A stretch of 64,000 nucleotides of DNA, from positions 8,868 through 72,867 of the forward strand of contig CAYVRK010000014.1 in the NCBI GenBank assembly GCA_964453785.1, read 5' to 3'. Below are positions 60,539 to 63,980 of the stretch, piece after piece. The notes beneath the pieces were generated by a model. That model searched no databases, was not told the origin of the DNA, and saw nothing but the letters and a program-made list of their open reading frames with translations. This DNA is from an uncultured Bacteroides sp. GTDB lineage: Bacteria; Bacteroidota; Bacteroidia; Bacteroidales; GCA-2748055. Within the stretch, counting starts at the first letter, position 1; each line of letters opens with the position of its first letter. A program made the position numbers and the translations under genes.

Positions 60539-61750
60539 ATGAAAAAGCTTCAACAACCAATTCATCTTGCAGTCCTACTCCTTTGTATGATGCCGGTTCT
60601 CAGTTGTAAGATTGGTCATGAAAATTCCATGATGGGAGCATTCACCGATCCGGTTCTGGATTCCTGCAAAATAGAGCCTGATCATTCATATTACATTACA
60701 CAGCCCGATCATCATAATTCCGAACAAAAATTTCCTCTGGTTATTGTCATCGATCCTCATGGGGATGGCTTGTCTGCGATGGAAAAATTCAAAGATGCCC
60801 TTAAGGATGTTCCAATTGTTATAGCTGGTTCAAAGAAACTCAGAAATAATTATGACGGGTTTGAAACTTCTATAAAAAATTTGCATAACGATCTGGTTGA
60901 AAAATATCCGGTAGATCCCACAAAGGTTATTGTAGCCGGATTCTCCGGTGGTGCCAGGATGGCCTTGTATTACGGGATGAAGTATCCCGTTTATGGAATC
61001 ATCATGTTTGGCGCCGGTCCGGGGCGGCTAATCGACGGGTTTCCCCAAAAACAAATCTACGGGGTATCCGGGACACGGGATTTTAACTTTATTGAACAAT
61101 ACCGCCCTCTGTTTGATGATATCGGGACTAACTCCAAATATGTGAACGATTATTTCAGGGGAACGCACGCCTGGCCTCCGGAACGATATATTCGGGAAGC
61201 AGTTGTTTTCAGTCTCAGGGAAGCATCGGAACCTTACCGGACTTTTTCACTTGAATATGTTGAAGAATTCCTTGAGGAGTCAGACAGCCTGCAAAGGCAA
61301 AATGACCTGTTTTTTGCCGGTAAAGCGCTTGAGAAAACCTGGTATTTTGCCGCAGGGAGCCCTCAACAAAAACAGTTGTCCGGTAAGATCAATGCCTTTC
61401 GAAACAATCCCGGCTGGTTGGCCTATCGGGAAACAATCGAGTCGTTGCTGAATTCGGAAGTCCAAATGAAACGCATGTACGCTGAACATCTTGTTGAGCC
61501 GGATACGGTCTGGTGGTCAAAGGAATTAAATAGCTTGTTCACCCGAATCAATGTTTGTAAGGACCCCGCTGAAAAGGACTATTATTACCGTTTAAAAGGA
61601 TTTATTGGAATATACCTCTATTCACAAATTAACTCATTCCTGAACAAGAAAGATTCTGGCGATCTAATAAAGCGGTTGATTTGGATATACGAACAGGTTG
61701 AACCTGACTCCCCGGATCTTGTGCGATTTAAAACCAGTGTCTCCTTCTGA
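60539..61750 (+). CDS. Lipoprotein alpha/beta-hydrolase (esterase-like) with helical C-terminus
   Basis: Lipobox VLSC; PLVIVIDPHG, AGFSGGARMA (GxSxG), GTRDFN, GTHAWPP. Confidence 0.7.
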   Translation: MKKLQQPIHLAVLLLCMMPVLSCKIGHENSMMGAFTDPVLDSCKIEPDHSYYITQPDHHNSEQKFPLVIVIDPHGDGLSAMEKFKDALKDVPIVIAGSKKLRNNYDGFETSIKNLHNDLVEKYPVDPTKVIVAGFSGGARMALYYGMKYPVYGIIMFGAGPGRLIDGFPQKQIYGVSGTRDFNFIEQYRPLFDDIGTNSKYVNDYFRGTHAWPPERYIREAVVFSLREASEPYRTFSLEYVEEFLEESDSLQRQNDLFFAGKALEKTWYFAAGSPQQKQLSGKINAFRNNPGWLAYRETIESLLNSEVQMKRMYAEHLVEPDTVWWSKELNSLFTRINVCKDPAEKDYYYRLKGFIGIYLYSQINSFLNKKDSGDLIKRLIWIYEQVEPDSPDLVRFKTSVSF

Positions 61751-62657
61751 ATAAAAGCACTCCGCAAAAGGACAGTAATAAAGAGCAAACAAGTATGAGC
61801 GGCATGGCCCATATTGAATTTTCCATCCGATTTGGCACATTCATACCAAAAATGCTGGCGATCAAAGTGGGAATCATCAGGATGATGGAGATCAGGGTCA
61901 GCTGTTTCATGACCACATTCAGATTGTTGGAAATAACAGAAGCGAATGCATCCATCATTCCACTCTGGATATCAGAATAAATCTCTGCCGTTTCAAGTGC
62001 CTGTTTGTTTTCAATAAAAGCATCCTCAAGCAAATCTTCATTGATTTCGCTCTTGATCTTCTTTGAATTGCGTAGCCTAGCCAACACTATTTGGTTGGCC
62101 TTGATGGAAGTAATAAAATAGACGAGACACTTTTCCATTTTAAGCAATTCATTTAACTCCCTGTTTTTTATTGATTTCTCCAGGTCCTGTTCAATAAGGC
62201 CAGTCTGCCTGTTGATCTGTTTCAGGTAACTTAAATACAAACTCCCACTCCGGAGAAATAACCTTAAGATAAAATTATTAACATCCGTTATCTGCTTGTA
62301 TTGTTCCCTGAAAGGAGAGGACTGTTCAATGGGCAGAATCTCATTGTTTTGCAAGCAAAGTGTGAGGGTAAAATTCTTGGTGATATATATACCAAGAGGC
62401 AAGGTGTGATAGGGTACTCCGTTATTATCGATTTGAACCGGAATTCGCATGATCACCAGGGACCAGTCATCATCAAATTCCACACGGGGCCGTTCATCTG
62501 CGTCCAGAATATCATTGATGGCATCTGCCGGTAAATGAAATTCCTCGGTAAGCCTTTGTATTTCTTCGGGCGTTGGTTGTGTTACATTGATCCAGCACTC
62601 GTTTTCAACTTCGGATATCTCGATATATCCCCCGAATGTTTTAAAGATCTTAATCAT
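61728..62657 (-). CDS. corA: CorA-family Mg2+/Co2+ transporter
   Basis: WINV..PT.EE, LD.DER.R, SNNLN.VMK.LT, FGMN signature, two C-terminal TMs. Confidence 0.95.
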   Translation of the reverse strand: MIKIFKTFGGYIEISEVENECWINVTQPTPEEIQRLTEEFHLPADAINDILDADERPRVEFDDDWSLVIMRIPVQIDNNGVPYHTLPLGIYITKNFTLTLCLQNNEILPIEQSSPFREQYKQITDVNNFILRLFLRSGSLYLSYLKQINRQTGLIEQDLEKSIKNRELNELLKMEKCLVYFITSIKANQIVLARLRNSKKIKSEINEDLLEDAFIENKQALETAEIYSDIQSGMMDAFASVISNNLNVVMKQLTLISIILMIPTLIASIFGMNVPNRMENSIWAMPLILVCSLLLSFCGVLLFRRRHWF

Positions 62658-62753
62658 CTTTTTGCCTCCTTACATGCTTAACCTGTAAGGATACAAAATG
62701 GCCCTACAGATTGGTTAATACTCTGATTGTCTATGATACGGGCCTTCGTCCAT
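62658..62753 (-). promoter_or_regulatory. corA 5' leader with SD-sequestering hairpin and 12-aa uORF
   Basis: mRNA UCCUUACA-GGUUAAGCA-UGUAAGGA hairpin (62667-62691) covers AAGGAGG (62665-62671), 7 nt before ATG; uORF 62753-62715 = MDEGPYHRQSEY*. Confidence 0.6.
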
Positions 62754-62795
62754 TATTGTAGAATTGATTTCGATGCCGAAAGTAGTAAATAATTT

Positions 62796-63980
62796 TCATT
62801 TATTCTCCGGTTTAAGCCGGAGGTGAACCACTCCATGTGCCGGAATGTGTGTTATCATTTTTTTTCCTGTACTTCCAAGAAACTGATGTCCCCATAAATC
62901 CCTGATCCTGTAACCGGGATCAATCCTTAAACGTATCCAGTCAAATTCAACATCAATCCCAATGTCCTCCCTGTTGAAGAAACAGACCGAAAGCTCCCCC
63001 CTTTGCAAGGGTTTGAGATAAACTTCAAATTCACCATCATCAATCACTTTTTTGGCTGAAATCCCAAGTGAATCCTGATCAATTTGTATAACTTCCCGGT
63101 TGGTCAGAATTTCGGTTGTTTCCCGGTCCATTTTTCTTAAATCGTTCCCGGCCATAAGCGGAGCCGCCAGCATAGACCAGAGGCTGAATTGGGATTTTGC
63201 TTCCTCTTCAGTCAGTTCCCCGTTCCCGATCTCCAGCATGTCTGGATCATTCCAGCCGTCCGGTCCATTGAAGGGATCGAGCTGATGCTGCATATCCAGG
63301 TTGATGATCACTCCTCCACCCCACACCTTTCCATCTTTTGCGTCCGGAATATCCCAGTTGTTGCGTATATCACCGGTGGTCCTCCAAAGATGGCCCACAC
63401 GATCAGCCCACAACCAGGGTTTGCTTAATCCCCATTCGCAAAGGCTGAATACCACCGGCCTTCCTGCCTGGTAAATGGCATCGCGCATCAAAGTATAGGA
63501 CGAAATAGCATCCTGGGTACCCGTATTGCACCAGTCATATTTTAAAAAGTCTACTCCCCACAAGGCATAGCTCCTTGCATCCTGGAATTCATACCCCCTG
63601 CTTCCCGGCCTTCCCTGACAGGTAAGGGTTCCTGCACATGAGTAAACGCCAAATTTTAGCCCCAGCTCATGGATATAGTCTGCCAGTACTTTCATCCCCG
63701 AAGGAAATTTCTCGGGATCAGCCAAGATATTGCCCTGCTTATCCCTGCCAACCTGCCAGCAATCATCAATTACGATATACTGATATCCGGCTTCCTTCAT
63801 GCCCGAACTGACCATGGCATCGGCCGCCTCCATGATTACCTGTTCGCTGATCCCGTCACAATTGAAGTAATTCCAACTGTTCCAGCCCATGGGTGGTACC
63901 GGGGCCAATCCTTCAAATTTCTGTGAAAAGAGGGTAAGACCATGGCACAATAAAAGAAACAATGCTATTCTCCTGAACAT
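62796..63980 (-). CDS. Alpha-galactosidase, GH27
   Basis: PPMGWNSWN, YIVIDDCWQ, KFGVYS.AG..TC, WGVDFLKYDWC, WRTTGDI, WNDPDML, APLMAGND. Confidence 0.95.
   Translation of the reverse strand: MFRRIALFLLLCHGLTLFSQKFEGLAPVPPMGWNSWNYFNCDGISEQVIMEAADAMVSSGMKEAGYQYIVIDDCWQVGRDKQGNILADPEKFPSGMKVLADYIHELGLKFGVYSCAGTLTCQGRPGSRGYEFQDARSYALWGVDFLKYDWCNTGTQDAISSYTLMRDAIYQAGRPVVFSLCEWGLSKPWLWADRVGHLWRTTGDIRNNWDIPDAKDGKVWGGGVIINLDMQHQLDPFNGPDGWNDPDMLEIGNGELTEEEAKSQFSLWSMLAAPLMAGNDLRKMDRETTEILTNREVIQIDQDSLGISAKKVIDDGEFEVYLKPLQRGELSVCFFNREDIGIDVEFDWIRLRIDPGYRIRDLWGHQFLGSTGKKMITHIPAHGVVHLRLKPENK

Follow-up and report, generated by a model that had tools for sequence, protein, structure and literature searches.

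The window analysed here is a stretch of 64,000 nucleotides (nt) from an uncultured Bacteroides sp. of the order Bacteroidales (assembly GCA_964453785.1, contig CAYVRK010000014.1, positions 8,868 to 72,867), and our subject is the leader of one of its genes, which encodes a CorA-family channel. This leader lies in the 138 nt between the stop codon of an upstream alpha-galactosidase gene (62796; Pfam Melibiase_2) and the corA ATG (62657-62655, minus strand). Within it lie a promoter box, an upstream open reading frame (uORF) and a strong Shine-Dalgarno sequence (SD), together with four segments (regions 1 to 4) that can pair in alternative helices. The features are as follows.

61728-62657, minus strand: the regulated gene, a 309-amino-acid (aa) CorA-family divalent-cation channel with the GMN motif (Pfam CorA, E 1.3e-53)
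62661-62674, minus strand: region 4, which holds the SD and forms the 3' side of P3:4, the sequestrator helix (covariation, 90 leaders)
62680-62697, minus strand: region 3, the anti-SD strand used by both helices (partner of region 2 through 62690-62680 and of region 4 through 62697-62684)
62702-62712, minus strand: region 2, AAUCUGUAGGG, which supplies the 5' side of P2:3, the anti-sequestrator helix (covariation, 90 leaders)
62715-62753, minus strand: the uORF, MDEGPYHRQSEY followed by TAA, whose M-D-E-x-P N-terminus is the proposed sensor (sequence reading, leader-peptide comparison)
62740-62744, minus strand: region 1, GGCCC within uORF codons 4-5, which can pair with GGGCC at 62704-62700 to form helix P1:2 (minimum-energy fold)
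62777-62784, minus strand: promoter -7 box of the Bacteroidota type, TACTTTCG (consensus TAnnTTTG, one mismatch)

Several of these parts had been named in a preliminary description of the window, made from the sequence alone. The SD that it reported 7 nt ahead of the corA ATG is present as AAGGAGG at 62671-62665, with the spacer CAAAAAG. The perfect 8-bp hairpin drawn around this SD is likewise there: UCCUUACA (62691-62684) pairs without mismatch with UGUAAGGA (62674-62667) across a loop of 9 nt. The uORF has 12 codons, as described, with its ATG at 62753 and its TAA at 62717-62715, and GGCCC at 62744-62740 is complementary to GGGCC at 62704-62700. Both of these stems occur in the minimum-energy fold of the whole leader, which is more stable than that of shuffled sequences (z = -2.2). 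What the preliminary description missed was the key alternative helix, P2:3 (62712-62702 with 62690-62680), the rival of the SD hairpin for the anti-SD strand; its 5' arm, region 2, starts 3 nt past the uORF stop codon in the window.

The conservation of the leader was examined across the order. Orthologues of the 309-aa CorA were found in 97 of 401 sampled genomes, representing 67 of 236 genera; named close relatives included Ancylomarina, Draconibacterium, Saccharicrinis, Anaerophaga and Marinifilum, a few Flavobacteriales and metagenome-assembled genomes with other labels. The upstream DNA of all orthologues was extracted and 94 upstream regions were evaluable. About three quarters of these (74/94) had a uORF starting M-D/E-D/E, and the two sequence features mostly occurred together: 66/94 had both the uORF and an SD (GGAG), 8/94 the uORF without the SD, 1/94 the SD without the uORF and 19/94 neither. 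GGAGG was kept in leaders whose other nucleotides had diverged completely. The leaders fell into three sequence types, whose RNA sequences are unrelated and whose layout is identical. Their peptides begin as follows.

Type A (the type of the window): MDEGPYHS...
Type B: MDDYH-x-[DE]...
Type C: MDDSNPR..., MDDPNSR... or MDDDNPKYY

Two of the orthologous loci stood apart. About 60-170 nt upstream of the CorA start, locus L006 (G029:C111) contained 10 N followed by a 27-nt perfect foldback, the loop of which holds the uORF start in reverse orientation; this has the appearance of an assembly artefact, from a scaffold gap or a foldback. At locus L048 (G245:C12), the CorA orthologue carries four in-frame stops (2 TAG, 2 TAA) behind an intact leader (MDEEPYHS...), and may be a recent pseudogene.

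An exact TAnnTTTG box was found in 109/127 distinct leaders versus 10 in reverse-complement controls. In most leaders it ends 24-28 nt upstream of the uORF ATG (24 nt in the window), and because the box precedes the uORF, the latter should be within the transcript. Transcription is therefore predicted to start upstream of the uORF, rather than at the downstream position that the preliminary description had regarded as incompatible with its proposal. A scan of the leader for sigma-70 promoters and terminators performed no better than on shuffled sequences and was uninformative; no terminator-like site was found in the leader.

Covariation was assessed in a MAFFT alignment (A1) of 90 distinct type-A leaders. 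The hairpin of the preliminary description, extended to 12 pairs as P3:4, was paired in 91% of cases and 11/12 of its pairs had changed on both sides. Helix P2:3, which links CUGUA(A)GGG right after the uORF to the anti-SD strand, was 92% paired, with 10/12 pairs changed on both sides. For neither helix did any of 500 shuffles reach the observed value (0/500 each), and pairing fell to 42-61% in a control in which the partner was slid by 1-3 columns. Since both helices use the same anti-SD strand they are mutually exclusive, and the SD of the regulated gene sits in the last arm of these alternative pairings (3' arm of P3:4). The competing helices were also near equal in energy: the means were -13.7 versus -14.7 kcal/mol, and the pairing that frees the SD (ON) was the more stable in 36/90 type-A leaders. 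Metagenome leaders picked by their uORF DNA alone gave -13.1 versus -13.9 when linked to CorA and -14.4 versus -16.0 when linked to MgtE, and the 43 type-B/C leaders, despite their unrelated RNA sequence, had means of -13.8 versus -12.1. Because the uORF, SD and hairpin are conserved among relatives and P3:4 covaries, the parts first noticed in a single sequence are, on this comparative evidence, more than chance.

The uORF was conserved as a peptide. Codon 5 encodes Pro in 88/90 type-A leaders, by way of all four codons (CCG 60, CCT 19, CCA 6, CCC 3), and entropy across the type-A uORFs was highest at the third codon position (0.45, 0.66 and 0.84 bits for positions 1, 2 and 3, respectively). 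Among 129 distinct leader peptides, residue 2 is D in 121, residue 3 is D or E in 120 and residue 5 is P in 87. An M[DE][DE] start was present in 92% of these peptides versus 0.8% of the N-termini of the genome, and at least three D, E or P among residues 2-7 in 109/129 (84%) versus 3.5%; the window peptide, MDEGPYH, has three. A His/Tyr pair is conserved as well, occupying residues 6-7 in type A and residues 4-5 in type B. Conservation of the peptide ends after the first 5-7 residues, and both its length (8-30 codons, mostly 8-16) and its C-terminus vary. The peptide start is the only feature universal to the three leader types. In L152 (Yeosuana marina NZ_JAAKGI010000005.1), TTG replaces ATG as the start of the leader ORF, with the peptide (DEGPYHC...) and the helices behind it preserved. 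From this pattern of codon variation and residue conservation, we infer that the uORF is read as protein. Its start context is A-rich (~70% A at -12 to -14, 66% A at -3, and 2-7% G at -12 to -6), in line with published descriptions of SD-less initiation in Bacteroidia. At the transporter start, unlike the uORF start, there is a G-rich SD block.

The position of the uORF stop codon was also constrained. In 51 type-A leaders, 8 nt separate it from region 2 downstream, and in 33 it falls within that region by 3 nt; the 43 non-A leaders all have it 0-8 nt from the point where pairing of the anti-sequestrator hairpin begins. With the stop fixed at or near region 2, a terminating ribosome must therefore open P2:3. 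A separate observation concerns the nucleotides around this stop (window 62714-62720, minus strand; A1 columns 61-69), where (G/U)UAUUAAC is conserved in both type-A forms. In the 12-codon form its UAA is the in-frame stop; the 16-codon form reads through it as V-L-T and stops 12 nt later, within region 2. Coding alone does not account for the conservation of this motif.

Strong SDs are otherwise rare in the window organism. We counted SDs ahead of the first ATG of each long ORF, in place of a count over all ATGs that proved too noisy, and took the same count 30 nt further upstream as a positional control. At -16..-5, AGGAGG preceded 20/3,799 long ORFs (12 in the control) and GGAGG 48/3,799 (33 in the control); GGAGG before ATGs was no commoner than its permutations. 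The organism does not use SDs in general, as has been reported for Bacteroidia (PMC9976891, PMC13000453). The remark in the preliminary description that the corA SD was the sole strong one noticed at a gene start in the window was roughly right, one more GGAGG start being present on the contig of the window. Other rare strong-SD gene starts in the same genome (G000) lie on contig C24 near 11835 and 13356 and on contig C63 (1301-aa ORF); they include TAAGGAGGACAAAAATTATG, TTAGGAGGTAGCATATG and AAAAAAGGAGGGCTGTATG.

The genes that follow the leader point to its function. Public metagenome contigs were scanned with the first 20 nt of the uORF as the query, which matched 113 contigs. Among the 80 loci listed, 42 precede CorA, with one more cut off by the contig end, and ~25 precede a 445-460-aa protein with Pfam MgtE_N, CBS and MgtE domains; the others were four chance matches inside unrelated genes without the RNA, one unassignable at a contig end and six too short. 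A covariance model (R1) built on the type-A leader detected single copies in 9/151 genomes, four before CorA, five before MgtE and none elsewhere, and a type-B pattern found five sites, 5/5 before CorA, against 0 for the reversed-pattern control. Within MgtE the leader was confined to a distinct subfamily (4/28 MgtE), the 22 'housekeeping' MgtE having neither uORF nor SD, and it was absent from 8/8 MgtA genes above the TIGR01524 cut-off. The window genome's own MgtE and its second, distant CorA paralogue also have no leader. CorA and MgtE share no ancestry; what they share is the function of Mg2+ transport. A signal related to Mg2+ is the parsimonious explanation for a leader shared by two unrelated Mg2+ channels, and this exclusive link is the best available argument for it.

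The leader-bearing MgtE proteins (L320, L326, L329, L347, L395) form a subfamily in which members are 47-68% identical to a leader-linked MgtE. The common MgtE (L316 and ~22 other loci), without uORF or SD, often follows a gene ending ...RPEQL...F..L. Broader searches were less productive: a loose uORF...GGAG...ATG pattern returned mostly coding noise in the window's own genome, the mini-ORF MDDPQRGK (contig C5) had no switch or transporter behind it, and the strict type-A pattern gave only chance coding matches in a phylum-wide sample (mostly other orders and classes).

Taken as a whole, these comparisons make it likely that a leader peptide here governs translational attenuation of the gene for an auxiliary Mg2+ channel, and the element most likely switches magnesium uptake on at low cellular magnesium. 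Control of translation is indicated because the last helix holds the SD. The mRNA would start at the leader's own promoter, ~20 nt ahead of the 12-codon leader ORF. Region 2 would serve as an SD look-alike, region 3 as the anti-SD and region 4 as the SD of corA, such that pairing of region 3 with region 2 would leave the SD free (ON) and pairing with region 4 would hide it (OFF). With ample Mg2+, a ribosome would complete the leader, run onto region 2 and unwind P2:3, and P3:4 would then cover the SD (OFF); in type A the weak helix between regions 1 and 2 would also favour OFF if the uORF were empty. The acidic/proline N-terminus, M-D-E-G-P, would destabilise the ribosome translating it and abort translation. 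At low Mg2+, ribosomes would accordingly stall on or drop from the first codons and never reach region 2; P2:3, being transcribed before region 4 exists, would persist, with the SD exposed and CorA made (ON). A Mg2+-responsive translational switch that couples uORF translation to SD release had been suggested in the preliminary description, and every structural part of that suggestion is backed by comparative evidence: the uORF peptide is conserved, the hairpin covaries, and SD and uORF co-occur. That description had also stressed the GGCCC/GGGCC stem over the uORF. The complementarity of that stem is exact at the coordinates given and its covariation is weak; the position of the uORF stop, and not the stem alone, appears to be the conserved coupling point.

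A number of observations weigh against this mechanism. P1:2 was 71% paired across the 90 leaders, mainly through an invariant CCC/GGG core, and was equalled by 4/500 shuffles. In the window itself, P2:3 has -11.7 kcal/mol against -14.7 for P3:4, a deficit of 3 kcal/mol. Masking a ribosome on codons 4/5 in equilibrium folding lifted the mean SD accessibility of type-A leaders only from 0.04 to 0.18, and that of the window stayed at 0.22-0.23 under all such masks. These folds did not reproduce switching for type A, and no thermodynamic switch is claimed; given that equilibrium folding barely opens the SD, any switching must therefore be kinetic. Eight uORF-bearing leaders have no GGAG, and the co-occurrence of uORF and SD among the orthologues (Fisher's test, p ~1e-12) is expressed by a figure that ignores shared ancestry. 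The substrate of the window CorA is not certain, since its score against NCBIfam TIGR00383 (130.9 bits) is under the equivalog cut-off (200.75). Destabilisation of the ribosome by a nascent chain has been demonstrated only in enterobacteria and with richer D/E/P runs. Finally, the effect of an 'SD release' is unclear, in that the ribosomes of Bacteroidia are reported to be SD-blind, with bS21, bS18 and bS6 hiding the anti-SD (PMC9976891, PMC13000453). The window assembly does not contain the 16S rRNA 3' end that would carry the organism's own anti-SD.

The two covarying, mutually exclusive helices are also what a riboswitch expression platform usually looks like, and one has to consider a ligand-binding RNA in which Mg2+ or some other bound molecule decides between P2:3 and P3:4 and the uORF is incidental. 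Mg2+ transporters are classic riboswitch targets: the M-box (ykoK, RF00380), a large three-helix metal-binding aptamer with a terminator that needs no ORF, is a cis-acting leader found before unrelated Mg2+ transporter families (mgtE, corA, mgtA), a property that the present leader shares. The region around the leader (62400-63000, both strands) nevertheless matched neither the Rfam Mg_sensor nor any other of 4,227 families at E<=10, and RF00380 had no match anywhere in the window genome, with matches in the control genomes of B. subtilis and L. lactis; the leader does not resemble the M-box, as the preliminary description had judged. There is no conserved multi-helix aptamer, and beyond the two helices only the uORF is strongly conserved. 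Moreover, types B and C, with their unrelated RNA, keep the M-D-[DE] start, the in-frame stop beside the hairpin and synonymous Pro variation. A ligand-binding riboswitch consequently appears very unlikely. Still harder to credit is a constitutive structured 5' untranslated region, in which the hairpin would tune or stabilise the mRNA, the uORF would encode a small functional peptide or nothing, and no switching would occur. Leaders commonly hold short ORFs and hairpins, and the SD of the window copy was paired in every ribosome-mask scenario of the equilibrium folds. A hairpin of this sort does not call for a covarying second helix of about equal energy that is incompatible with the first, nor for a stop codon at a fixed distance from a P2:3-type helix in leaders of unrelated sequence, and conservation limited to the first 5-7 residues, with variable length and C-terminus, fits a sensor and not a functional peptide.

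The same attenuator could also answer to another signal, such as proline, charged tRNA-Pro or elongation factor P activity, the supply of Asp or Glu, another divalent cation (Co2+, Ni2+, Zn2+) or translation stress in general. Codon 5, with its conserved Pro, is preceded by Gly or Asp, both slow peptide-bond donors, and the conserved His/Tyr pair of types A and B would also suit another signal. Pro codons of Salmonella mgtL and mgtP have been reported to respond to proline-tRNA, in work cited by PMC8092293. CorA-family members carry other cations, and the window CorA does not reach the equivalog score. On the other hand, the only genes found behind the leader encode CorA and MgtE, whose shared known substrate is Mg2+, and no link of these genes to proline or acidic amino-acid metabolism was found. 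We regard a signal other than Mg2+ as unlikely, though conceivable. A response of the attenuator to Mg2+ would best accommodate the gene association.

Control of Mg2+ uptake is known mainly from the M-box riboswitch of Firmicutes and from the enterobacterial leader peptides mgtL, mgtP, mgtQ and corL. Among the closest known systems are also the attenuators of ermC and cat, in which a leader peptide precedes regions 1-4 with alternative pairings, the SD lies in region 4 and a paused ribosome frees it. The corA leader has in common with them a predicted leader peptide, the alternative pairings among regions 1-4, the target SD in region 4 and, in the proposed mechanism, the paused ribosome that frees this SD. 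In ermC/cat, however, the inducer is a ribosome-bound antibiotic and the target a resistance gene, whereas here the proposed trigger is an acidic/Pro nascent chain together with Mg2+.

Salmonella mgtQ offers a close precedent. In the mgtCBRU operon, this 8-codon ORF lies ahead of mgtB, and its translation aborts in a manner that depends on acidic codons, bL31 and Mg2+; its Asp2 and Glu5 act by way of a 1:2 / 2:3 / RBS-hairpin design to free the otherwise hidden ribosome-binding site (RBS) of mgtB (Choi et al. 2021, PMC8092293). Like mgtQ, the corA-leader uORF is very short, with acidic residues right after Met (Asp2 and Glu5 in mgtQ), and belongs to an RNA of four segments, where occupation of segment 1 by a ribosome would let 2:3 form, tie up the anti-RBS and free the transporter RBS; in both, the control would be of translation and not of transcription. 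Unlike mgtQ, it belongs to a different phylum and has no sequence similarity to it. Further differences are that a strong SD precedes mgtQ itself, whereas the uORF start here is A-rich and SD-less; that mgtQ lies between mgtC and mgtB in an operon, whereas the corA leader has its own promoter box; and that the target of mgtQ is a P-type ATPase, whereas the leader here would target the channels CorA and MgtE. The uORF stop on the anti-sequestrator helix, which mgtQ does not have, suggests that complete translation turns the gene off.

In E. coli, acidic/proline N-termini destabilise the translating ribosome from within, most strongly at the very N-terminus and at low Mg2+. Translation of MgtL (M-E-P-D-P) aborts within six residues, more so at low Mg2+, switching on mgtA, and efficient translation of corL lowers corA expression, in an inverse relation (PMC11552253). 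The present leader resembles the mgtL-mgtA pair of Salmonella and E. coli (Rfam Mg_sensor) and the corL-corA pair in the D/E/P-rich N-terminus of its peptide and, in part, in its target, corA itself. The mgtL and corL leaders work by Rho-dependent termination and span ~200-260 nt, whereas the leader here is ~120 nt long and ends in an SD-sequestering hairpin. It would work in an mgtQ-like and mgtL/corL-like way, yet it lies outside those families, given its lack of an Rfam match and of sequence similarity, its SD-less uORF start, own promoter box, other targets and other phylum. A Breaker-lab survey describes an 'mgtE motif', which is a different RNA and occurs in Thioalkalivibrio only. Full-text literature searches found no published description of the corA leader, in agreement with the preliminary description, and nothing published on the control of Mg2+ uptake in Bacteroidota.

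The SD of the leader has one described counterpart. In Bacteroidia, rpsU (bS21) is autoregulated through an SD that is read by ribosomes lacking bS21 (PMC9976891, PMC13000453). Like that of rpsU, the SD of the corA leader is among very few conserved strong SDs in an otherwise SD-poor lineage; for rpsU, no uORF or switch has been described, and neither corA nor mgtE is mentioned in PMC9976891 or PMC13000453. One way in which an SD might function where the anti-SD is normally hidden is that the leader mRNA is initiated efficiently only by ribosomes with an exposed anti-SD, for example those lacking bS21 or loosened at low Mg2+. Mg starvation would then act at two points: translation of the SD-less uORF would abort, and the SD-led transporter gene would be served by a specialised pool of ribosomes. 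We consider this extension improbable; if true, rpsU would be joined by a second natural circuit of regulation in Bacteroidia that depends on an SD, and Mg2+ homeostasis would be linked to ribosome heterogeneity.

As an attenuator of Mg2+ uptake, the leader would fill a gap in Bacteroidota with an element that is compact (~120 nt), modular, serving two channel families, and widespread in the order. It would independently support the acidic/proline nascent N-terminus as a general Mg2+ sensor, as well as the idea that a lineage largely devoid of SDs can retain one for regulatory use. Its practical use would be as a small Mg2+-responsive expression module for Bacteroidota genetics.

A further structure lies at the upstream edge of the locus. 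On the minus strand, a 6-bp hairpin (CUCCGG-CUUAAA-CCGGAG, 62805-62822) is formed by the last codons of the alpha-galactosidase gene; it ends 6 nt before the stop codon of that gene, just upstream of the corA promoter box.
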